From Minisyncoccota bacterium (GTDB taxonomy: Bacteria > Patescibacteriota > Microgenomatia > UBA1400 > PJMF01), in assembly GCA_003173865.1 (NCBI GenBank), contig PJMF01000012.1, positions 8,908 to 72,907 on the forward strand: DNA of 64,000 bases. The letters run 5' to 3'. Below, in pieces: positions 36,293 to 48,583 of this stretch. Under the pieces are notes generated by a model, which saw only the letters and a list, made by a program, of their open reading frames with translations, was not told the origin of the DNA and searched no databases. The number at the start of each line of letters is the position of its first letter. The stretch's first letter is position 1. Position numbers and translations under genes: made by a program.

Positions 36293-37738
36293 TCAGTGAA
36301 AGTGGATTGTGAGTCTTTTCAAAACTTCTTCCCGGCCAATAACACGCATTGTTTCAAAAAGTGGTGGAGTTGCTTGCTGACCAGTGACCGCAATACGTAA
36401 CATCATAAAGTATTGACTCTTCTTCCAGTTATTTTTTTCTTGCAGTTGGCGAATAGACTCTTCTAGAGCTTCGTGACTCTGCCAACTTGCCTCCGGCGTG
36501 AGTACTTCTCTCGTGACTTTGAGTTGCGATTCTACTTCTTCAAGTGATGATTTTTTCAGTAGCTCATCACGATCAACAGTAATTGGACGAAAGAAAAAAC
36601 TGGTTAACCCTTCAACGTCCTTCAATGTTACTAATCGCTCCAGAATGAGTGGTAAAATGTGGTCAAGTCGCTCTCGAGGAAAATCACTGGGTAAAAAGGG
36701 TTCTAAGCGATGCTTTAAGTCTTCTACGGACAAATTACGAATATAGATTCCATTCATCCAATCAAGTTTTTTTGTGTCAAACACGGGGCCAGTTTTTTGA
36801 ATACGATCGAGTGACATCACATCCAAAAATTCAGACAGCGAGAAAATTTCTTTTCCTTCTGGATGTGACCAACCTAATAACGCAATGAAGTTGAGGAGCG
36901 CTTCTGGCAGGTACCCTCGATCACGATAACTTAAGATGGAAACATCATTTTTACGTTTCGACAACTTGCTTTTGTCAGCATTTCGAATCAGCGGCATGTG
37001 AGCAAGGAAAGGCATCTCCCAACCCAATGCTCGGTAAAGCAAAATATGCTTGGGCGTACTGCTAATCCACTCTTCACCCCGTAAAAGATGTGTGATCTTC
37101 ATTAAATGATCATCAACTACCACGGCAAGATGATACGTTGGGAAACCATCAGACTTCATTAACACTTGATCATCAACAGCACTCGATTCAAACTCCACGT
37201 GACCCCGAATTAAATCTTCCCAACTAATTACACCCACATCTGGCACTTTCAAACGAATTACATGTGGCTCGTTGGCCTTCAGTTTTTGTTGAACATCATC
37301 AGAACTTAATCCGCAGCAGAGACGATCATATTTGGGAAGTAGACCAGCTTTTTGTTGGTCGTTGCGCATTTGAGTAAGTCGTTCAGCTGAACAAAAACAG
37401 TAATACGCATCTCCTTGGGCAATCAGTTCTTGAGCATATTTTTGATAGACATCCAAACGCTCTGACTGCTTGTACGGCGCATACGGTCCACCCTTTTGGC
37501 CTCCTTCATCATACTCAATACCCAACCACTCAAAAGCTTCGTAAATTTTTGCTTCTGCATCTTCTACAAAGCGGGTGCGATCTGTGTCTTCGATGCGTAT
37601 GAGAAACTGTCCACCCGATTGGCGAGCAAGTGCCAAATCAAACATCGACATCCACGCCGTCCCGACATGTGCAATTCCCGTGGGACTTGGAGCAATACGT
37701 GTTCGTTTCGGCCCGGTAAATGAAGAAGTATGCGACAT
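36293..37738 (-). CDS. gltX: Glutamate--tRNA ligase
   Basis: RIAPSPTG.AHVG, RIEDTD, YYCFCS, PTYHLAVVVDD and KLSKR motifs; TATAAT lies 6 nt before the ATG. Confidence 0.97.
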   Translation of the reverse strand: MSHTSSFTGPKRTRIAPSPTGIAHVGTAWMSMFDLALARQSGGQFLIRIEDTDRTRFVEDAEAKIYEAFEWLGIEYDEGGQKGGPYAPYKQSERLDVYQKYAQELIAQGDAYYCFCSAERLTQMRNDQQKAGLLPKYDRLCCGLSSDDVQQKLKANEPHVIRLKVPDVGVISWEDLIRGHVEFESSAVDDQVLMKSDGFPTYHLAVVVDDHLMKITHLLRGEEWISSTPKHILLYRALGWEMPFLAHMPLIRNADKSKLSKRKNDVSILSYRDRGYLPEALLNFIALLGWSHPEGKEIFSLSEFLDVMSLDRIQKTGPVFDTKKLDWMNGIYIRNLSVEDLKHRLEPFLPSDFPRERLDHILPLILERLVTLKDVEGLTSFFFRPITVDRDELLKKSSLEEVESQLKVTREVLTPEASWQSHEALEESIRQLQEKNNWKKSQYFMMLRIAVTGQQATPPLFETMRVIGREEVLKRLTIHFH

Positions 37739-37770
37739 CAAGCGATTATACAATTAAACCGCCCATTGCA

Positions 37771-38868
37771 CTACGGAGAGGTACTCGGTTGAGCTGTACT
37801 ACTTTGAATGTATCGAGGATCAACAGCTGGAACATACCCAATAAAACCGCCATCTCCTACAAAAATATAAATCGGTTGCAAGTAATCTTGTTCTTGAAAA
37901 TCATCATAGTAACCAATCCCCACATTACGAATTGTGGCGGTAGATGTATTGCCTTTATTCACGATAAATCCTTGGCCAGCCTGTAAAGTTTGCCACGCAG
38001 ATTGGACCGATCGAATGGGATACGTCTCGGGTTGGGTATAGTCAACTGGATGGTATCGATACTCAAGTTCGACAATTTGATCGTTTCCTGTCAAACCCCC
38101 ACTCAGCACAGCGTGAATAATGCCTTCTCTCCCTTTTGTCGTAAATAACGGATAAATACTGTCAATCGGGGGTCGCTGAATGTTTACTTCAACTAAGTTT
38201 GCATCAGAAACGGACACAGCAGGAGTAATGTCACTTCCAAATGACTTTAAGAAGCTCGTTTGACCTGACATCGTCGCAATATCCGCGCCCAAGGTAACTC
38301 CATTGGCGATAAATGATCGGACGGTGGACACTGCTGTATCTGCATCGGGAAGATTTTTATTTGAAAATAATTCTGGTACCGACATGTAGTTCGTCGTAAT
38401 CGAAAAGTCACTATTTTGTAAATCCATTTCCAGAGTAGATTGCAAAGGCTGTGCCTTCGTCCAGCGATACGTACGTTGATTTAGAATAATTGGAGCAGAA
38501 AGATACCCTAAATTTGCTGCAGCTTCTTTTGCTTTTTGATCTGCTAACAAATCTAACGAAGCTTTTGGCATGTAAAAAACTTTCGCTCGATCTTTAAATC
38601 GCGGAAACTGACCACTGGCTGTTTGCAGCTGATAAGAACTCGGTTTGTCACTTGCCGTTTGCGCCGGAAATCGCAGTGGAGGCAGTGCTCCAAAACCGAC
38701 TGTAGGGGGAGGTGGTGGCGCCGGATGAGTTGCTGCCCAGTATGATGTGGCAGCGCTCAAAAATGTTTTTCCTACTGTTAACGTAATCAATGCAACAATA
38801 CCAAACTTAATAAAAAGTCGACCATAGTAAGCAAGCTGGGTTAACGTTAAACCCGATTGTGATTCCAT
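37771..38868 (-). CDS. Membrane-anchored extracellular hypothetical protein
   Basis: N-terminal TM, PPPPP linker and YLQPIYIF.G C-terminal motif. Confidence 0.65.
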   Translation of the reverse strand: MESQSGLTLTQLAYYGRLFIKFGIVALITLTVGKTFLSAATSYWAATHPAPPPPPTVGFGALPPLRFPAQTASDKPSSYQLQTASGQFPRFKDRAKVFYMPKASLDLLADQKAKEAAANLGYLSAPIILNQRTYRWTKAQPLQSTLEMDLQNSDFSITTNYMSVPELFSNKNLPDADTAVSTVRSFIANGVTLGADIATMSGQTSFLKSFGSDITPAVSVSDANLVEVNIQRPPIDSIYPLFTTKGREGIIHAVLSGGLTGNDQIVELEYRYHPVDYTQPETYPIRSVQSAWQTLQAGQGFIVNKGNTSTATIRNVGIGYYDDFQEQDYLQPIYIFVGDGGFIGYVPAVDPRYIQSSTAQPSTSP

Positions 38869-38885
38869 TACTTCAGTGTAGCAAA

Positions 38886-39851
38886 TTACTGAATTGTTTC
38901 CCACTGATAATGCGCGAAGAGCCAATTAATCAGCCAAGTCGTTTCTGTAAAACGACTTTTACTCCCCAGCACGACCACAATCACTTGATGACCATTTCGA
39001 TCAATTTCAGTAATTAAATTTTCACCAGCAAACTCAGTGGTTCCGGTCTTCACCCCGACTACGCCGTCTACTACACCTAGCAGTTCTTGCGTCGTATTTA
39101 GTTGATGGGCATACTGACCAGTCACATCATGGATTGTGGTTTGTCTAGTTCCCACGACTTCACGCAGGATGGGGTCTTTCATCAGTTCATTTGCCAAGAT
39201 GGCGAGATCTCGCGCTGTAGTCAGTTGCGTTTGATCATCTAAACCAGATGGATTTTTAAAGATTGTTTTTGTTAAGTGAAGTTCGGCCGCTTTTTGGTTC
39301 ATGTCGTGTACAAAACCTTCGTACCCCTGGGGGTGATTATTTGCAAACACAAAAGCGGCGTCGTTACCCGAAGGAATTAAAAGTGCCTTGAGCAGCTCAT
39401 GCACTGTAATTTGCTCACCAACATGAAAATGAACTGTTGAGCCAGTGGCAAATGCTTCTTCGCCCACGGTAAGAACTTTATCGAGTGGATATAACTGACG
39501 CACAACCAACGCTGTCATCATCTTGGCAGTGGAGGCCGGATAGTGAGCTTGGTCAGCATTTTTTTGAAAAAGGACCGACCCCGATTGACGATCCATGACA
39601 TACGCCGAATCTGCTGTTAACGCGGCGGGTGAAAAATCAGCAGGTACTGCCGAGGGAGTCGCGACATCTTCAACAAAGAGGGGAAGCGTGACGTGCTGAA
39701 TTAATGGCAACGTTGGTGGAAGAGGCTGCACCGAGGAATGTTCACTTGGTTCTTCAGCTGACGTGAGGTATACAGGAACAACTAAAAACACCGCCAAAAG
39801 TAACACAATACTCATCCACTGATCTACGCGCAGCTTTGGTACATTTTGCAC
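38886..39851 (-). CDS. D-alanyl-D-alanine carboxypeptidase (peptidase S11)
   Basis: PASTAK (SxxK), SGND (SxN) and KTG motifs. Confidence 0.93.
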   Translation of the reverse strand: MQNVPKLRVDQWMSIVLLLAVFLVVPVYLTSAEEPSEHSSVQPLPPTLPLIQHVTLPLFVEDVATPSAVPADFSPAALTADSAYVMDRQSGSVLFQKNADQAHYPASTAKMMTALVVRQLYPLDKVLTVGEEAFATGSTVHFHVGEQITVHELLKALLIPSGNDAAFVFANNHPQGYEGFVHDMNQKAAELHLTKTIFKNPSGLDDQTQLTTARDLAILANELMKDPILREVVGTRQTTIHDVTGQYAHQLNTTQELLGVVDGVVGVKTGTTEFAGENLITEIDRNGHQVIVVVLGSKSRFTETTWLINWLFAHYQWETIQ

Positions 39852-39866
39852 AGAGATTATTGTAGC

Positions 39867-41267
39867 CTATCCCACAATCTTTAAAGACAACTCTTTTAAG
39901 AGTTCCGCGCTGACTTCACTGGGCGCGTCCATGACCGCCGTCTTCCCAGAAGAGTTCATTGGAAATGCTATCACTTCACGCAGTGAGTTTTCATTCGCTA
40001 AGATCATCACATAACGGTCGAGTCCCAGCGCAATGCCGCCGTGTGGCGGAGTGCCCACTTCGAATGCTTCAAGCATATGTCCAACACTTGCTTGAATTTC
40101 TGCATCTGAGTACCCCATTACTTTGAACGTCGCTTTCAGTAACTCAGGTCGATGTGCACGAATACTACCACCACCTGCTTCATAGCCGTTACAGACTAAG
40201 TCATATTGAGTAGTTAAAATTTGGGCGACGTTCTCACCTTTCAACAGCCACTCTTCATGTTCTGGAATTGGTGCACTGAATGGATTGTGTGTAAATGTCC
40301 AACCGCTTTTGCCATCTTGAACTTCAGCCTTATCCGCTTTATCAACTTTTTTAAAAAAAGGAAAGTTGACGACCCATGCAAACGCAAGTAGACCCTCTTT
40401 TTTTTCTTGTTCTGTGCGTAAATCAAACTTGTCAGCCCCAAATTTTTCCATTGCTTCTTGATAACTAAAAACTGGAAACTGCTCTTGTTGTAACTGTCCA
40501 CCGACTGCTTTCACTGACGACTTGACGATTTCTTCAACGGTTGACATTACATCTTCACGCTGCACAAAACTCATCTCCAAATCAAGTTGCGTAAACTCAA
40601 AACCTCTGTCGGCGCGCAAGTCTTCATCACGGATACAGCGCGCAAACTGGAAATAATTTTCTACACCAGCAGTCATTAATAATTGTTTGTATTGCTGTGG
40701 ACTTTGTGGCAGCGCGTAAAATTTTCCTGGTTGCAAACGCGAAGGTACTATAAAATCACGGGCGCCTTCTTTCGTTGATTTGGTCAACATGGGCGTTTCA
40801 ACCTCAACAAAAGATTTTTGGGCAAGATTGTTACGCAATGCAGCATAAAAATCAGATCTCAACTGCACAATTTTATGCATTCGCTCACGACGCAAATCTA
40901 GGTAACGATACTTGAGACGAACTTCTTCGTTTACTTCACGGCCGTTACCTTCAACTTGAATTGGCAGTTCTTTCGCCTTATTCAGCACGGCATACTCTTG
41001 AACGTCAATCTCAATTGTGCCAGTCGGACTATTTGAGTTAATCATTTTTTCCGGACGCGCTTTGACGAGACCATTAATTTCGATCACTGATTCTGTTGTG
41101 AGTTCGCCCATTTTCTGATAACCAACACACTGTACCGTTCCCGAGCGATCGCGCAGATCGATAAACGTTAATTTGCCATGATCACGCTTAGTACTCACCC
41201 ATCCCTTGATGGTTACAACTTGGCCAATCATCTCAACAGTTTGTTCAACTAAAGTGCGCTCTGTCAT
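39867..41267 (-). CDS. aspS: Aspartate--tRNA ligase (short form without a full GAD insertion)
   Basis: RDHGKLTFIDLRD, RYLDLRR, ALPQSPQQYKQLLM, RDEDLRADR and PPHGGIALGLDR motifs; RBS GGAGGAG. Confidence 0.96.
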   Translation of the reverse strand: MTERTLVEQTVEMIGQVVTIKGWVSTKRDHGKLTFIDLRDRSGTVQCVGYQKMGELTTESVIEINGLVKARPEKMINSNSPTGTIEIDVQEYAVLNKAKELPIQVEGNGREVNEEVRLKYRYLDLRRERMHKIVQLRSDFYAALRNNLAQKSFVEVETPMLTKSTKEGARDFIVPSRLQPGKFYALPQSPQQYKQLLMTAGVENYFQFARCIRDEDLRADRGFEFTQLDLEMSFVQREDVMSTVEEIVKSSVKAVGGQLQQEQFPVFSYQEAMEKFGADKFDLRTEQEKKEGLLAFAWVVNFPFFKKVDKADKAEVQDGKSGWTFTHNPFSAPIPEHEEWLLKGENVAQILTTQYDLVCNGYEAGGGSIRAHRPELLKATFKVMGYSDAEIQASVGHMLEAFEVGTPPHGGIALGLDRYVMILANENSLREVIAFPMNSSGKTAVMDAPSEVSAELLKELSLKIVG

Positions 41268-41286
41268 AACTCCTCCAGATAATAAT

Positions 41287-41450
41287 AAAAAAAACCTTTC
41301 CAACACACCGCAACAGCGATGCATTGAAAAGGTTTCTCGTTTTGAGAAAGGTGCCAACCTTTTCGGTACTTATTATGGCATTTCGGCTGCCTGCCGGGAA
41401 GTGAAACTACTGTGTCAGGAGTAGCTCGTCTCGAATGAAACTATTCCTTC
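41287..41450 (-). ncRNA. T-box riboswitch (transcriptional), Asp specifier, short stem I
   Basis: Antiterminator GAAAAGG(T)-TGGCACC-TTTCTC/GAGAAA-CCTTTTC; competing 20-bp terminator plus U tract; hairpin GAGCTACT-CCT[GAC]AC-AGTAGTTT; CGGC/GCCG plus GGCA/TGCC pseudoknot. Confidence 0.75.
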
Positions 41451-41491
41451 GTGATTTTACTATAAAAAAAAGCTCAATTCTATAGGAATTG

Positions 41492-42826
41492 TCAGAGATG
41501 GTGCCAAATCTTTAGTTTCTCATCGATCCAGCCATCGTAAAATTGTTCTATGTATTGACGTTTTGTTTGTTGACCACTCAAGTATCGAAGTTGACGTTGC
41601 GCAACAAAAAATCTAGGAAGCAACGCGAAAAGCAAACTCAGCGTGATCGTTATGTACATATATGACCGTGATCTCGGTCTTTGATCAATATAATTTTTCA
41701 TAGTGAAGACATACAAAATCGCGAGAACTGCAAATCCTGAGAGGGCATATCTTGTCGATAAAGGCGGTATATACCACCAGATGATCCATTGCGCAGCTGC
41801 AAAGAAAAGTAAAAAAAGCAATGGACGACTGGAGATCATTTTGCGCCAATTCATCACAAATATTGGAGCAAATACCAAAAATAAAAGTGACGTGTAGTCA
41901 CGGGAAAAGAGGGTCAGTTCAGTCAATGAAGTCGGAAGGAAAAGTGTTCTTTGCCAAAGATATTGTCCAAGCGAAGTAGCCCCTCCAATTTCTCCTAATT
42001 TTGCTGTATGGAGATCGAAAGAATAAAAAGGATTTCCTGTGTGTTGAAAAGCGAAAACATAAAATGGCAGAGCAACGAAGAGACTCAAAGGAAAAAATAT
42101 ATTTATGGCGAATACTGGTAATAAAAACAAAGAAAATAATTTAGTTGCTAAAGAAGCACCAAAAAAAAGTGCGCTCCATATTTTCTCTGAAATTCCACCA
42201 CAGTGATCCAACACCCGCACAAGAAGCCACACGGCCGCAATTTCCCAAAACGCTTTTGCGATGTCAACGTAAAAACTACTTGACTGCCAAGCCACAACTT
42301 GAAATGTTGAAATGATCAGCACAGAGATCAGTGTCCATTGCCGATTCATGACTTCGCGGGCGAGTTGATACGATACAAACAAAAAGCTCACACCAAACAT
42401 ATACGCCACGAATTTCGCACCAATTTCACCTGCCAATTGATACCCATGAAGAAAAATTAAATCGCTCCAGAGAGGATTAAGCGATTGGTAAAAATCTGGA
42501 AGATACACAACCCTATGCAACTTTGCGAACTCTGCAACTATTGGCAAATGATACCAGACAGCATCAAAACCAGTTTCTGGCACAAAGACACCGAGCAAAT
42601 GCAGAAGCCAAATTGTTACCAGGGCAGCAATCAAAAATTTTTCTCCCCTCTGCAACGCTGGGATCAACACAACCATTTGCCACATCCATGATATCAAAAA
42701 TAAAAGTGGGATGAGTATAATTAATGAAAAAGGCGGATACAGCCAACCTAAAAAACCTGCCACGCTAGTCAAAACTCCACACCAAAAAAATGTAAACAGA
42801 TATGCAAAAAAAAGTTGTGAACGCAT
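41492..42826 (-). CDS. Polytopic membrane protein, probable GT-C glycosyltransferase
   Basis: FDAVWYHLP, YVD, K, TGNPFY and RY motifs within a multi-TM protein. Confidence 0.65.
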   Translation of the reverse strand: MRSQLFFAYLFTFFWCGVLTSVAGFLGWLYPPFSLIILIPLLFLISWMWQMVVLIPALQRGEKFLIAALVTIWLLHLLGVFVPETGFDAVWYHLPIVAEFAKLHRVVYLPDFYQSLNPLWSDLIFLHGYQLAGEIGAKFVAYMFGVSFLFVSYQLAREVMNRQWTLISVLIISTFQVVAWQSSSFYVDIAKAFWEIAAVWLLVRVLDHCGGISEKIWSALFFGASLATKLFSLFLLPVFAINIFFPLSLFVALPFYVFAFQHTGNPFYSFDLHTAKLGEIGGATSLGQYLWQRTLFLPTSLTELTLFSRDYTSLLFLVFAPIFVMNWRKMISSRPLLFLLFFAAAQWIIWWYIPPLSTRYALSGFAVLAILYVFTMKNYIDQRPRSRSYMYITITLSLLFALLPRFFVAQRQLRYLSGQQTKRQYIEQFYDGWIDEKLKIWHHL

Positions 42827-42834
42827 ATAACCGC

Positions 42835-43695
42835 TTATTTAGAAATCCACAGCATGCTTAAATCAAACACTTTTGCGGAATGTGTAAGGGCGCCGGAAGA
42901 AATATAATCCACACCGGTTTCAGCAATTTGACGGACATTTTCCAAAGTGACATTGCCAGATGCTTCGAGTTTTGCTTTTTTTGCGTTGTCGGCGTTGAGT
43001 TTCACTGCTTCGTGCATCATTTCCACACTCATGTTGTCGAGTAAAATATACTCAACTCCCAATTCCAAACCAATCTTCACATCTTCGAGCGTACGCGCCT
43101 CAATTTCGATTTTTAAGTTCTGATTCGCAGCACGCGCTTTTTGGACTGCCTTAGACAGCGATCCAGCAAAATCAATGTGATTATCTTTTATCAAAATCAT
43201 GTCGTACAAACCCATCCGGTGGTTTTGCCCCCCACCACGTTGTACCGCGAGTTTATCTAATCGACGCAAACCTGGAGCGGTTTTGCGCGTGTCAAGCATC
43301 ACCGTTTTTGTTCCTTTTATCGCGTCAACAAATTGATTCGTCATCGTGGCAATGCCCGACATTCGACCCAAAAAATTGAGCGCTGTTCGTTCGGCAGTCA
43401 AAAGAGCTCGTGCGTTTCCAGAAATCTCAACCAACGCTTTTCTATTCTCCACTTGTGAGCCCTCGGTTACTTTCATAATAAATTTTACCTTTGGATCAAA
43501 CAACCGAAATGTCGCTGCAGCCACATCCAGACCAGCAACCACACCTTTCTGTTTCGCAATAATCTGCGCGCTCATTCGTGCCTCAACAGGTACAATGCTA
43601 TTCGTCGTGACATCACCTTCACCAACATCTTCAGCCAAAGCGTGAGTAATTGTTTCGAGAATGGAGGGAGAAAGTGCAGTTGTATTCATTTTCAT
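42835..43695 (-). CDS. nadC: Nicotinate-nucleotide diphosphorylase (quinolinate phosphoribosyltransferase)
   Basis: ED...GDVTT, ERTALNFL, DTRKTAPG, HRMGL.D.ILIKDNH, LLDNM, EASG and GALTHS motifs. Confidence 0.97.
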   Translation of the reverse strand: MKMNTTALSPSILETITHALAEDVGEGDVTTNSIVPVEARMSAQIIAKQKGVVAGLDVAAATFRLFDPKVKFIMKVTEGSQVENRKALVEISGNARALLTAERTALNFLGRMSGIATMTNQFVDAIKGTKTVMLDTRKTAPGLRRLDKLAVQRGGGQNHRMGLYDMILIKDNHIDFAGSLSKAVQKARAANQNLKIEIEARTLEDVKIGLELGVEYILLDNMSVEMMHEAVKLNADNAKKAKLEASGNVTLENVRQIAETGVDYISSGALTHSAKVFDLSMLWISK

Positions 43696-43701
43696 AAAAG
43701 C

Positions 43702-44451
43702 TCATTCCGGAAGCTCCATATTTAAATCAAAAAGAGCGTGCTCACCTAATTCCAATAGGCTGCGATTCAACGCAACAAATTCTTGCATTCCTCTTTGACC
43801 TTTAGAGTCATATATGTATCCATCTCCAGAATATAGTTCTCTGAGTTGAACTGTAAAGTACAAAAAAGCTCGGATATCAGCAAGTGACATCGGAGAAGCT
43901 AAAAATCGATCATAGGTCATAAATAGTGGATGGTTCTTTCCGGCTTTCTCTATATCTAAAAATGATGTTCCCGTGATCGTTTCAATTTCAGAAAATGTTT
44001 TTAATTTCAATTGCTCTCTATGAATATTAAGTGTTATGGCAATATCCGGATAAACCACTGAGATTAAATCCAACGTGTTGTCCCATGTCGCTGATTTTGC
44101 TACCTCATCATTCTCGGGAAAAACAATTAACTTAAATTGAGTACCTGCCCTAACCTTATGCACAATATAGTCTGGGTGATAACCAATTGCTAAAAGCATT
44201 TCATAACCACTTTTTCCGGGCAGTAAGGAGAGTCCGTCCGCAGCCATGAGCATAACTAACTTGCGCATGGGATCATCACTTAACATTTGAAAATCTTGTG
44301 CTGCAGTTCCGCGCAAAATTCGTCCGCATAAATGTTCTGCTCTTATTATTTCCGAAGAACGTAATGCTTCAAGATATAAACCCAAATCTGAAACTGCCTG
44401 TAATTTGTCTATATCAATATTGCTTTGAGCTTTTTTTACTTCTTTTGGCAT
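43702..44451 (-). CDS. Hypothetical protein between nadA' and nadC
   Basis: 249-aa ORF with 6-nt and 19-nt gaps to its co-oriented neighbours. Confidence 0.7.
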   Translation of the reverse strand: MPKEVKKAQSNIDIDKLQAVSDLGLYLEALRSSEIIRAEHLCGRILRGTAAQDFQMLSDDPMRKLVMLMAADGLSLLPGKSGYEMLLAIGYHPDYIVHKVRAGTQFKLIVFPENDEVAKSATWDNTLDLISVVYPDIAITLNIHREQLKLKTFSEIETITGTSFLDIEKAGKNHPLFMTYDRFLASPMSLADIRAFLYFTVQLRELYSGDGYIYDSKGQRGMQEFVALNRSLLELGEHALFDLNMELPE

Positions 44452-44470
44452 AAATTTCTTAATGAATTCG

Positions 44471-45022
44471 TTAACCTACCGCCAACATCCGTTCAATTGG
44501 CAACCTTGCCCTTTCTGCAATTTCAGCTGGAACCCTAACCTCAAACTTTAAATTCATTAAACTATCCAATAACTTCTCCAACGTAATCATTTTCATAAAT
44601 TTGCATACCATGTCATCGCGCAAAGGATAAAACTTTTTCTCTGGATTTTGCTTCCGCAGTTGGTGGATAATACCATTTTCTGTGGCCACCACATATTCTT
44701 TCACTGGAGATTGTCGAACATGAGTCAACATGCCACCTGTAGATAAGATATGTGTTTTTTGTTCAGGGATTTCTTTTGTTGCCGCATAGTGAATACATTC
44801 TGTTGTGCAACCGCATTCAGGATGAATTAAAAATTCTGCTGATGAATGTTCGCTGAGTTTCTTTAAAACATCTTTTAAATTCGCGCGTGCATGAACGTGA
44901 CACTCACCCGGATAAACATAGATTTTCCGACCAGTCATTCTTGCCACATAACTTCCTAAAAATAAATCCGGCACAAAAATGATTTCCTTATCTTTTGGAT
45001 TATATCGTTCAAAATAATTCAA
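44471..45022 (-). pseudogene. nadA: Quinolinate synthase NadA, C-terminal fragment (5'-truncated)
   Basis: IIFVPD.FLG, GECHVH, HPEC, STGGM, ATE.G and C.FMK motifs are present. It is only 183 aa, and the N-terminal region with the first Fe-S Cys is absent. Confidence 0.8.
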
Positions 45023-45076
45023 AAATCAACTTGAAAATGAATAAGCTTATATAAACTTATTTTAATCCTAGAAAAT

Positions 45077-46198
45077 ATGCTTTATATTCCAGAAAATCCT
45101 ACAAGAAAAAACGAATTTCAAGCTTCACTAAGCGAAGTAATAAATATCTTGTTTTCAATTCATCTTCACACTTTCCAAATTGATTCTCAAAGAAAAGAAC
45201 CAAAAGAAGAGTGGAAAAAATTTATCTTAATGGTGGAAGAATGTAAGAGAGAGAATCCTAAGAAAATGACTGAATGTATTGAGGCGCTCAATCATGCAAA
45301 AACAATAATTCTCAAAGCGAGTCAGCACTGGAATGCTCCCTTGGATTTTGGAAGTGCAGAGACCTTATATCCACATTATTCCGGCCTTGACGTAACGCCG
45401 TTCGAAAAATTAAAAAAAGTATTATATGAATCACTTCGGATCGATCTTGATGATCAAAAATCACCAAGACAAGAAAAAATAAACACTCTTATAGGTTGGA
45501 TTCATGACTTAGAAAGCGAACGGTTAACTTTTTTCAATTCTAAGACTCAAACTTTCGAGACAGTAGATTTTTCCGGTGATCAGTTTAATGAAGATTTGAA
45601 AAGAGATCTATTGCAAAGAATGAAACAATTTCTTTTGAGTCAATTAGCTACAATCATTGATGAAGGTCATACGACAGCAACTAAAAAAGTAGATGCTCAA
45701 TACAGTCAGCGAATTGAGATAAAGCATGAGATTGCAAAACAAATCCTACAATCTGTGGATGCTCTTCCGTTAACTCGAGATACTATTCATCAATTAAAGG
45801 AAATTGTACACGCAAGAGCTCGGACAACGGAAGCTTTCTTATATGGAATAAGGGAGGTGGGTATAGATTCTCTTCACTTCCTTGTCCCGAAGGAAGTTTT
45901 TAATAAAGTAGTGAAAATTAAGCAAACTAAACCTCAAGATTTTGAAACACTTCTTGCCCCTTTATATATCAATGCTTACATGCACACATTGTTAGCATTT
46001 GCCGATGTCTTTTTTACTGACAAACAAATTTACACTGATCTTCACCCATCTGCATCCTTAAAACTTCAGCTAAGAAGAACTATCGAGATTATTTCCGCTT
46101 TCCAGTCCAAGTGCGGTTCTTCTTTTTCTGATGAGAAACTGAAACCATTTCAGCAGTTTGTTGCAGACCTAAAGGCACTTGTTAATCAAGAAGATTAA
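45077..46198 (+). CDS. Hypothetical protein (predicted mostly helical)
   Basis: 373-aa AT-rich ORF; no family recognised. Confidence 0.65.
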   Translation: MLYIPENPTRKNEFQASLSEVINILFSIHLHTFQIDSQRKEPKEEWKKFILMVEECKRENPKKMTECIEALNHAKTIILKASQHWNAPLDFGSAETLYPHYSGLDVTPFEKLKKVLYESLRIDLDDQKSPRQEKINTLIGWIHDLESERLTFFNSKTQTFETVDFSGDQFNEDLKRDLLQRMKQFLLSQLATIIDEGHTTATKKVDAQYSQRIEIKHEIAKQILQSVDALPLTRDTIHQLKEIVHARARTTEAFLYGIREVGIDSLHFLVPKEVFNKVVKIKQTKPQDFETLLAPLYINAYMHTLLAFADVFFTDKQIYTDLHPSASLKLQLRRTIEIISAFQSKCGSSFSDEKLKPFQQFVADLKALVNQED

Positions 46199-46240
46199 AA
46201 TACATTGAAGTGCCGGAAATGAACATCCAGAATTTTTCTC

Positions 46241-46270
46241 TTGCCCAGCGGTACTAAAAAATGGTACACT
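46241..46270 (+). promoter_or_regulatory. Sigma70-type promoter of the glyQS T-box leader
   Basis: TTGCCC-N18-TACACT with a TG extension; the predicted +1 is near 46277, the first base of stem I. Confidence 0.65.
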
Positions 46271-46276
46271 AGCCAC

Positions 46277-46415
46277 GTGGCATTGATTGGCTTGGCAACC
46301 GGGAGTCACAAAACAAAGTGGGCAAGCAAAATGTGCAAGCCAACTAGGGTGGAACCGCGATTCTTCATTCATTGGAGAACCGTCCCTATAAAGTATAAAG
46401 TACTTTATGGAGACG
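46277..46415 (+). ncRNA. T-box riboswitch (translational/SD-sequestering), Gly specifier, ultrashort stem I, no stem II
   Basis: GTGGC-ATT-GA-TTGG-CTT[GGC]AA-CCGG-GA-GTCAC (K-turn hairpin); T-box AACTAGGGTGGAACCGCG at 46342-46359; antisequestrator TAGGG/CCCTA and GCG/CGT; the sequestrator 46381-46415 covers the GGAG SD. Confidence 0.88.
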
Positions 46416-46418
46416 TCT

Positions 46419-47813
46419 ATGTTTACATCAACCCATCCTTCCCTCGAAGATATCGTCGCCCTGGCTAAACGCCGTGGATTTGTTTTTCCTACTTCTGAAA
46501 TTTATGGCGGACTTGCCAATTCCTACGATTACGGTCCACTCGGAGCCGAACTCCTCCGCAATATTCGCAATGAGTGGTGGAAACAATTTATCCACAAACG
46601 TCGTGACATGGTTGGACTTGATTCCCAAATCATGCTTCACCCCGAAACCTGGGTAGCATCTGGGCACGTTGGTTCTTTTTCTGATCCACTCGTCGAAGAT
46701 AAAGTCACCGCAAAACGTTACCGCGCCGACCATCTTATTGAGGCTTGGCTTAAAGAACAAAAACTTGAAAGTAATGAAGTTCAAGTTGAAAATATGCGCA
46801 TTGAGGAAATGGGTGAGTTTATCGCGACCAAAAACATCACCAGTCCAGATGGCAATCCAGTCACAGAGCCACGCAGCTTCAATTTATTATTTGAAACCGC
46901 AATTGGATCAGTAGCTGGAGAAAAATCAAAAGTGTACCTCCGCGGAGAAACAGCTCAGGGAATTTTTTCAAATTTCAAGCAAATTTTAGATTCAACGCGC
47001 GTGCAACTTCCGTTTGGGGTTGGACAGATCGGAAAAAGTTTCCGTAACGAAATTACAACCGGGCAGTTTGTTTTCCGTACTCTTGAGTTTGAACAGGCCG
47101 AAATCGAGTACTTTTTTAACCCTGCTCAAAGTGACTGGAAAGAACTTTTTGAAGACTGGAAGAAAAGTATGTGGAGTTTTGTGACCGAAATACTCGGGAT
47201 TCAAGCTGAAAATCTGCGCTGGCGCCAACATACTGATAAAGAACGCAGTCATTATAGTAAAGATACATATGACCTCGACTACAACTTTTCATTTGGATGG
47301 AAAGAACTTTGGGGAATTGCTTACCGCACTGACTACGACTTGAAGCAACACATCAATCATTCTGGAAAAAGTTTAGAGTACACTGATCCCTACACTGGCG
47401 AAAAATTCGTGCCTCACGTCATTGAGCCGGCAGTCGGTGTAAATCGAATGTTCTTGATGGTGCTCAGTGATGCCTATTTTTACGATGCCGAGCGTCAAAG
47501 AACTGTTTTACGCCTAAAGCCAAACTTAGCACCGTATAAAGTTGCTATCTTTCCATTAGTCAAAAACAAACCAGAAATTGTAGCTAAGGCTGAAGAGGTT
47601 TATCAACTCTGTGCGGTTGTTGCTCCCACCGTCTGGGACGATCGCGGTAACATTGGGAAACGCTATCTTAGTCAAGACGAGATCGGTACGCCTGCCTGCA
47701 TCACGATTGACTACCAAACTCTCGAAGATAATACAGTGACTTGGCGAGACCGAGACACTACTGAGCAAGTTCGAGTCGCTATCTCCGACCTTGCCCAGCG
47801 CATCCGGATGTAA
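46419..47813 (+). CDS. glyQS: Glycine--tRNA ligase (alpha2, GlyQS type)
   Basis: KRRGFVFP.SEIYGG, YLRGETAQG, GKSFRNEIT, FR..EFEQ.E and PHVIEP..G motifs; SD GGAG 6 nt before ATG 46419. Confidence 0.97.
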   Translation: MFTSTHPSLEDIVALAKRRGFVFPTSEIYGGLANSYDYGPLGAELLRNIRNEWWKQFIHKRRDMVGLDSQIMLHPETWVASGHVGSFSDPLVEDKVTAKRYRADHLIEAWLKEQKLESNEVQVENMRIEEMGEFIATKNITSPDGNPVTEPRSFNLLFETAIGSVAGEKSKVYLRGETAQGIFSNFKQILDSTRVQLPFGVGQIGKSFRNEITTGQFVFRTLEFEQAEIEYFFNPAQSDWKELFEDWKKSMWSFVTEILGIQAENLRWRQHTDKERSHYSKDTYDLDYNFSFGWKELWGIAYRTDYDLKQHINHSGKSLEYTDPYTGEKFVPHVIEPAVGVNRMFLMVLSDAYFYDAERQRTVLRLKPNLAPYKVAIFPLVKNKPEIVAKAEEVYQLCAVVAPTVWDDRGNIGKRYLSQDEIGTPACITIDYQTLEDNTVTWRDRDTTEQVRVAISDLAQRIRM

Positions 47814-48430: not shown

Positions 48431-48437
48431 TTCCTAC

Positions 48438-48518
48438 ATGTTCGCAGGTCTTTTATACTCTATCTCTAGTCTTCTTCTCCTTATTATTATCAAGGCGCAT
48501 CTCGCTTGGGAGAAGTAG
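48438..48518 (+). CDS. Leu/Ile-rich attenuator leader peptide MFAGLLYSISSLLLLIIIKAHLAWEK
   Basis: The ATG lies at the predicted +1; tandem LLLLIII codons at 48471-48491; a terminator follows. Confidence 0.75.
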   Translation: MFAGLLYSISSLLLLIIIKAHLAWEK

Positions 48519-48541
48519 TATTAAAGTAAAAAGAAATACAC

Positions 48542-48567
48542 ACCCCTCTCAAGCAGAGGGGTTTTTT
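48542..48567 (+). terminator. Attenuator terminator
   Basis: ACCCCTCT-CAAGC-AGAGGGGT-TTTTT; the competing pairing is GCTTGGGAG (48504-48512) with CTCTCAAGC (48546-48554). Confidence 0.85.
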
Positions 48568-48583
48568 GTTTTAGAAAGGTTTT

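Follow-up and report, generated by a model that had tools for sequence, protein, structure and literature searches.

The window (the whole stretch of 64,000 nucleotides that we analyzed) comes from a draft genome of 1.2 Mb that is 41% G+C and 95% complete. On its minus strand, an RNA leader of T-box type precedes aspS, the gene for an aspartyl-tRNA synthetase (AspRS); the features are collected in Table 1. A Pfam search of the AspRS found the catalytic and OB domains only, with no match to the GAD domain. The protein has an RDHG motif, which is typical of non-discriminating AspRS. Because a family search of this 95%-complete genome found no asnS over the cut-off and found gatB to be present, the enzyme is likely non-discriminating, presumably charging both tRNA-Asp and tRNA-Asn. 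Three synthetase genes, gltX, aspS and glyS, all lie within 11.5 kb (window 36293-47813), and nadC-like and nadA-like open reading frames (ORFs), named from their translations rather than by family search, sit between aspS and glyS. The ORF upstream of the leader encodes 444 amino acids, resembles a membrane protein and matched nothing in Pfam or NCBIfam. Just past its stop codon, at 41476-41491 (minus), a 6-bp hairpin is followed after 3 bases by a run of eight Ts, possibly the terminator of this ORF.

Table 1. Features of the aspS leader and its surroundings (positions are those of the window)
Feature	Position	Strand	Basis or remark
aspS leader, T-box-type, ~100-nt RNA	41427-41287	minus	hairpin, pseudoknot, T-box bulge, terminator
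Candidate -10 box TAAAAT	41454..41459	minus	sequence; uncertain
Second GAC	41428..41430	minus	paired in part in each of the three trial folds
Stem I, 8-bp hairpin with 8-nt end loop (41419-41412)	41404..41427	minus	pair probability 0.98-1.0
Specifier codon GAC (Asp), purine next	41414..41416	minus	unpaired probability 0.97-1.0
Pyrimidine-rich linker, 7 nt, in place of stem II	41397..41403	minus	sequence
Stem IIA/B-type H pseudoknot, 4 + 4 possible pairs	41377..41396	minus	covariation across 15 leaders
Purine-rich linker, 13 nt, AAG run kept, no stem III	41364..41376	minus	sequence
Antiterminator	41327..41363	minus	-8.4 kcal/mol; covariation in helices A1 and A2
Intrinsic terminator, 20 pairs (41335-41292) and U run to 41287	41287..41335	minus	-28.1 kcal/mol
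Ribosome-binding site GGAGGAG	41270..41276	minus	sequence; outside the terminator
aspS, 466 aa, bacterial-type AspRS	39867..41267 (start 41267)	minus	NCBIfam PRK00476, 590 bits vs cut-off 443
Glycine T-box leader	46277..46421	plus	short K-turn-like stem I, stem III, canonical T-box at 46347

The hairpin, the GAC at 41416-41414, the pseudoknot, the UGGC and the 20-pair terminator, all of which a first-pass annotation had named, were recovered in their places by sequence and folding. The transcript would start a few bases downstream of TAAAAT. A -10-like hexamer stands at a similar distance 5' of the hairpin in homologous leaders, as judged by eye; the box is uncertain here because a consensus promoter scan gave no site at 41454..41459. 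Stem I, whose position and layout also recur in homologs, has no elbow-binding domain and no K-turn signature. The pseudoknot is formed by strands 41396-41393/41387-41384 and 41391-41388/41380-41377, and its F-box position reads CCGAAA, not the CCGUCA given as the F-box sequence in section 4.2 of PMC7583486. Despite the absence of stem III, the AAG run and an A run remain. A weak hairpin (41451-41432) lies 5' of stem I, and an 8-nt direct repeat flanks stem I on either side (41444-41436 and 41410-41402, minus).

A second GAC, at 41430-41428, had been put forward as an alternative specifier, and a longer stem I that would make it the true specifier can indeed be drawn, with the short repeat 5' of this GAC pairing with the strand used by the 3' copy. 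These alternative pairings have a probability of 0.02 or less, however, and the longer stem reaches -4.0 kcal/mol versus -6.8. The second GAC is also partly paired, and of 30 aspS leaders only this one and one other have a GAC within the 8 nt that precede the hairpin. That the upstream GAC is the codon read is thus highly improbable.

In the antiterminator, helix A1 pairs 41363-41357 with 41333-41327 and helix A2 pairs 41348-41344 with 41338-41334. Between them lies a bulge of 8 nt (41356-41349) that begins with UGGC beside helix A1 and holds the T-box heptamer at 41356-41350. The earlier description of this bulge as TGGCACC was right about the UGGC but not about the size: a fold forced to the 7-nt bulge has only -0.8 kcal/mol, compared with -8.4 for the 8-nt bulge, which can adopt two registers (-8.4 and -7.6 kcal/mol). 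Helix A2 begins with a U-A pair instead of the G-U wobble that has been described as a steric sensor of T-boxes at the base of this helix; G-C is commonest at that column among 15 homologs. In RNA that ends before the terminator is complete, A1 has a pair probability of 0.81-0.93.

The 5' strand of the terminator shares 41335-41327 with the 3' strand of the antiterminator, and both A1 and A2 covary, in agreement with the first-pass proposal that the two structures are mutually exclusive. In stability the terminator exceeds the antiterminator by about 20 kcal/mol, and a terminator scan returned three overlapping versions of this one site where 0.1 was expected. A local hairpin (-4.1 kcal/mol) can also trap the T-box sequence. 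Folding of the whole leader gave a z of -5.44 relative to shuffles (0/200), a value driven mostly by the terminator. Rfam, at the gathering score, identified no T-box anywhere in the window; RF00230 did not match the aspS leader at E up to 10, the glycine leader being the sole one to score in E-value mode. The window also holds weak Rfam matches to Phe and Trp leaders at 48437-48570 (plus; 29.3 and 26.2 bits, below gathering), probably just a terminator.

We compared the 30 best aspS loci among 61 related genomes. The T-box motif is present in 17, including this one, and 13 are without such a leader. By eye, the short hairpin of the 17 motif-bearing leaders holds GAC in 14 and AAC in 3. The three with AAC (Asn) in place of the loop GAC are L005, L009 and L018, and L229 is likewise changed. 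A tie between AAC leaders and the absence of asnS was considered and showed no contrast, asnS being found in neither the GAC nor the AAC genomes searched. In the nearest relative (L002, 81% AspRS identity), GAC falls in no clean loop.

The paired core could be aligned across 15 leaders. Since the structure was drawn from these same 15 sequences and the pseudoknot of this leader sits one column off in the alignment, the following counts describe the family more than this copy: 92% of cells are paired (slid controls, 35-52%), 9 of 15 pairs are changed on both sides, and in each pseudoknot helix 2 of 3 pairs are changed on both sides. The covariation score of the aligned cores was reached by no shuffle. 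Covariation in both pseudoknot helices upholds the initial view of an H-type pseudoknot reminiscent of stem IIA/B, and this leader's own pseudoknot and F-box depart from the family consensus.

From the core that runs from the pseudoknot to the antiterminator we built a covariance model, R1, leaving out stem I, the codon hairpin. R1 matches 113 of 141 genomes of the order (E up to 0.01), 16 of 121 genomes across the phylum under stricter filters (E up to 1e-4), and three places in this genome. The leaders analyzed below number 132, namely the three from this genome, 29 further loci and the next 100 among the matches listed; the weakest listed matches and 99 further matches lie outside this set. 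Aminoacyl-tRNA synthetase genes follow 123 of the 132: ileS (41), aspS (34), serS (33), valS (7), argS (3), cysS (1) and trpS (3, plus one more distant). The other downstream genes are serB (2), an aminotransferase (1) and six that were unassigned. A U run is likewise present after 123 of the 132. Three family leaders stand on biosynthetic genes (L050, L082 and L112), with GAC at an aspartate-aminotransferase-like gene and UCC at serB.

Because R1 lacks stem I, the match between codon and gene is a test independent of the model. The first-pass annotation had expected the loop codon of homologous leaders to match the synthetase downstream. With a strict parser (requiring 4 or more pairs in the hairpin, and a purine plus one base after the codon), a GAC hairpin was found in 30 of 34 aspS leaders and in 1 of 91 leaders of other named genes, and an AUC hairpin in 34 of 41 ileS leaders against 3 of 84 others. 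The same parser found UCC in 10 and AGC in 13 of the 33 serS leaders, and CGC in 2 of 3 argS leaders, with no cognate hairpin in valS (0/7), trpS-side (0/4) or cysS (0/1) leaders; by eye, several valS leaders have GUC in larger loops. In seven aspS leaders AGC scored as well, the likely source being their reduced stem II loop. A caller blind to the gene made calls for 101 of the 125 assigned leaders (24 were without a call) and matched the gene in 74, while shuffled labels gave 23.9 plus or minus 4.0 matches on average and at most 42 in 10,000 trials, figures to be read knowing that related genomes are not independent and that a few of the 74 matches are accidental, coming from the wrong hairpin. 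The scan of related genomes thus found, as had been anticipated, that the codon follows the gene.

Two of the finer sequence arguments made earlier fared less well. Loops of aspS leaders are mostly 7 nt, or close to 6 nt, so the 8-nt CYU-codon-AN loop is not a shared layout; what is constant is the codon, a purine and one base, and then the 3' strand. The match at the discriminator base does exist, the tRNA-Asp(GUC) gene of this genome having G at that position, but it is weak as evidence: the N of UGGN is C in 10 of 41 ileS leaders too and U in 6 of 34 aspS leaders, and appears only loosely tied to the gene in this family.

Could the site be a plain terminator whose likeness to a T-box is due to chance? 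The Rfam T-box model gives it no score, as such a reading would predict. The covariation of the homologous leaders and their codon-gene matching refute it, and we give it practically no credence. Given its parts, its covariation, the way the antiterminator overlaps the terminator, and the agreement of codon and gene, the aspS leader is, as far as sequence can tell, a real T-box-type switch.

We consider it likely, with a probability of roughly three in four, that the leader is a working transcription attenuator responding to uncharged tRNA-Asp. Pairing of the anticodon with the specifier and of NCCA with UGGN stabilizes the antiterminator in T-boxes (PMC7778990, introduction; PMC7583486). Here, uncharged tRNA-Asp would base-pair through its anticodon to the loop GAC and through its free 3' end to UGGC in the bulge; the two contacts together would hold the antiterminator, and RNA polymerase would read into aspS. 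If the tRNA-Asp were charged, the far more stable terminator would take over and end transcription near 41290. The pseudoknot is likely a rigid spacer between the two tRNA contacts, given that its role in other T-boxes is to position stem II and that this leader has no stem II. From the analogy with known T-boxes we infer tRNA binding and the discrimination of charged from uncharged tRNA without an elbow contact, S-turn or stem III, as well as the transcript start.

A looser specificity would suit a synthetase that likely charges both tRNAs. The 3' part might dominate, so that the leader answers uncharged tRNA-Asn or other G73 tRNAs besides tRNA-Asp. The genome has gatB and no asnS over the cut-off, asnS exceeds the cut-off in only 1 of 61 relatives, AAC occupies the same loop in 3 of 17 homologous aspS leaders, and there is no stem II to proofread codon-anticodon pairs. 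A tight codon-gene tie across the family would not persist if the codon went unread, however, and GAC and AAC differ at a Watson-Crick position. We regard this relaxed response as improbable.

Reading the aspS leader as a working switch for tRNA-Asp also requires that the missing domains can be dispensed with, and the family bears on this. An S-turn-like signature, defined by a regular expression of our own, occurs in 38 of 41 ileS, 7 of 7 valS and 1 of 1 cysS leaders, but in 3 of 34 aspS and 0 of 33 serS leaders. The spacer that corresponds to stem II is 28-74 nt in all 34 parsed ileS leaders, with stem II absent in none, and shrinks to no more than 10 nt in 8 of 30 GAC aspS leaders, counting the one studied here. 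At least three families of the order contain leaders that lack stem II. We also scanned GTDB genomes for Asp leaders that lack stem II, using an exact pattern that cannot match the divergent pseudoknot of this leader, and obtained 27 stretches: by eye, ten are such leaders on or just before aspS-like genes, ten are other T-box leaders with the pattern inside the stem II region, and seven look like chance. Some of these records have unlikely taxon titles and some may duplicate genomes whose loci are already counted here, so they were not added to the other counts. Because the short spacer is found in 8 of 30 GAC aspS leaders and in further Patescibacteria-type records, the loss of stem II is, on comparative grounds, shared and not private decay. 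A quick AspRS tree placed stem II-less leaders in several places, needing 9 changes over 12 rows where shuffling gave a mean of 11.2; repeated loss is only suggested, because the labels were set by eye, with at least one wrong, and the set includes poorly aligned divergent enzymes.

The other two departures also have counterparts. A form without stem III is the commonest in the family, and a minority of leaders insert a hairpin right after the AAG run. Ten of 131 leaders have the 8-nt bulge, each with a U following ACC, and it is present in all four T-box-bearing leaders of this leader's tree group. In 10 of 10 cases the extra bulge base before UGG can pair (C-G in 3, U-A in 5, U-G in 2), so that UGGN would stay beside helix A1; of the two registers, this one matches the rule in PMC7583486, where UGGN next to helix A1 is an invariant of T-boxes.

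These comparisons weigh on whether the leader might be decaying, that is, whether a functional ancestor lost stem II and stem III and left a fixed, leaky terminator with little tRNA response. Published work calls the missing domains essential, the energy gap between antiterminator and terminator is large, 13 of 30 relatives lack the leader altogether, and the pseudoknot and F-box differ from consensus. Yet the codon, the purine next to it, the UGGC and both antiterminator helices are intact here, and both pseudoknot helices are kept intact through changed but still-pairing bases. The recurrence of the stem II-less form in at least three families and the prevalence of the stem III-less form also speak against decay, and transcription must have some means of passing a 20-bp terminator if it is to reach an essential gene. 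We think decay unlikely, though it deserves some weight.

How does such a leader relate to known T-boxes? Four classes are listed in PMC10482949, and by the features that we tested the aspS leader, judged on sequence, works like a T-box but fits none of them. It has the general features of an exposed cognate codon, UGGN at the bulge's 5' edge, and a mutually exclusive antiterminator; it lacks the 7-nt bulge, the stem III flanked by RRRxG and AA purines, and the A2 G-U wobble. With class I (the B. subtilis tyrS type, RF00230) it shares the terminator/antiterminator logic, the pseudoknot and a synthetase target, while the long stem I, elbow-binding motif, internal-loop specifier, S-turn stem II and stem III of that class are absent. 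Like class II (the Bacillus subtilis glyQS type), it is transcriptional and has no stem II, as those leaders are described in PMC10482949. Class II is glycine-specific, however, with a long stem I that has an elbow-binding motif and an internal-loop specifier, and its whole stem II domain is replaced by a linker, whereas the aspS leader keeps the pseudoknot and reads Asp.

The likeness to class III, the actinobacterial ileS leaders of Nocardia farcinica and Mycobacterium tuberculosis, which have an 'ultrashort' stem I and are called 'class II' in TBDB, extends to a short stem I without an elbow-binding domain, an apical-loop specifier, the stem IIA/B pseudoknot, an F-box-like strand and a UGGN bulge (PMC10482949, introduction; PMC7583486). 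Class III is described in PMC10482949 as having an apical specifier, requiring stem II for function and being mostly translational. Unlike class III, the aspS leader has no S-turn stem II, no stem III, an Asp codon and an 8-nt bulge, and its loop is 8 nt, compared with the 5-6 nt described there. Its output is also different: a terminator and U run with the ribosome-binding site outside, while class III, in the same account, mostly sequesters the ribosome-binding site.

The aspS leader therefore combines an apical-loop specifier with an intrinsic terminator. PMC7583486 states that transcriptional T-boxes generally need a long stem I, that stem III is indispensable, and that stem II is essential with a short stem I, but only for A-U-rich codons; PMC9177973 ties a short stem I to translational T-boxes. 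In PMC7778990, the short-stem model was searched only in Actinobacteria and in class I matches with a truncated stem I, and TBDB entries with truncated stem I may include leaders of the aspS type. We found no paper on T-boxes in Patescibacteria, the candidate phyla radiation, Microgenomates or Saccharibacteria in a search that mostly excluded subscription literature, and no such leader by title or abstract start among the papers that broader searches listed. The S-turn pattern across the family partly fits the published weak-codon idea for stem II; codon strength is not the whole explanation, since GUC and GAC do not differ in G+C count.

It is tempting to view the aspS leader as a near-minimal natural sensor of about 100 nt, made of a codon hairpin, a pseudoknot strut and an antiterminator with an 8-nt bulge, that reads both the identity and the charging of tRNA-Asp, and as a member of a family spread across the CPR that retains the S-turn with AUC and GUC codons and does without it where the codon is GAC, UCC, AGC or CGC. 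We would put even odds on this wider picture. According to structural and binding work, a T-box cannot hold tRNA unless it has an elbow-binding domain or the S-turn of stem II, and it depends on stem III for sensing the charging state. A conserved leader that has none of these three parts but keeps the codon match and the terminator makes this rule testable with a 100-nt RNA. If the picture is true, the keeping or dropping of the S-turn by codon would be a natural experiment on which tRNA contacts T-boxes need. Regulation by tRNA sensing, overlooked by Rfam's model, would then exist in a lineage whose genomes are very small, and designers of tRNA sensors would gain a compact part.

The same genome contains other leaders of interest. 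Its ileS leader (L031, G000:C13:16476-16545, plus) belongs to the same family and has AUC in a short hairpin, a stem II region of 40 nt, a consensus pseudoknot, an 8-nt bulge with C as the extra base, and a terminator, and so offers a control for the aspS leader from within the same genome. L033 (G000:C32:17370-17580, plus) has a T-box, UGGC and a strong terminator, followed by an ORF of 109 amino acids that matched no known family, a tRNA-Trp-like gene and trpS; its best short hairpin holds AAC (Asn), not UGG. At G000:C8, around 45590-45831 (minus), a short-hairpin leader that R1 did not match immediately precedes a tRNA-His gene; it has UGGG, and its 7-nt loop contains CAC (His).

The glycine leader of the window scores 30.9 bits with the Rfam T-box model, against a gathering score of 93, and has GGC in the loop at 46291-46298. 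The gene behind it had been taken for glyQS; by family search it is of the dimeric GlyRS type (glyS). The T-box motif is present at 14 of 30 glyS loci, this one included, and of the other 13, 12 were judged by eye to have a U run at the end. Here, the final hairpin (46381-46421, plus) has no U run and covers GGAG (46409), six bases before the likely glyS start at 46419, which makes translational control plausible and may reflect a lineage-specific switch from transcriptional control.
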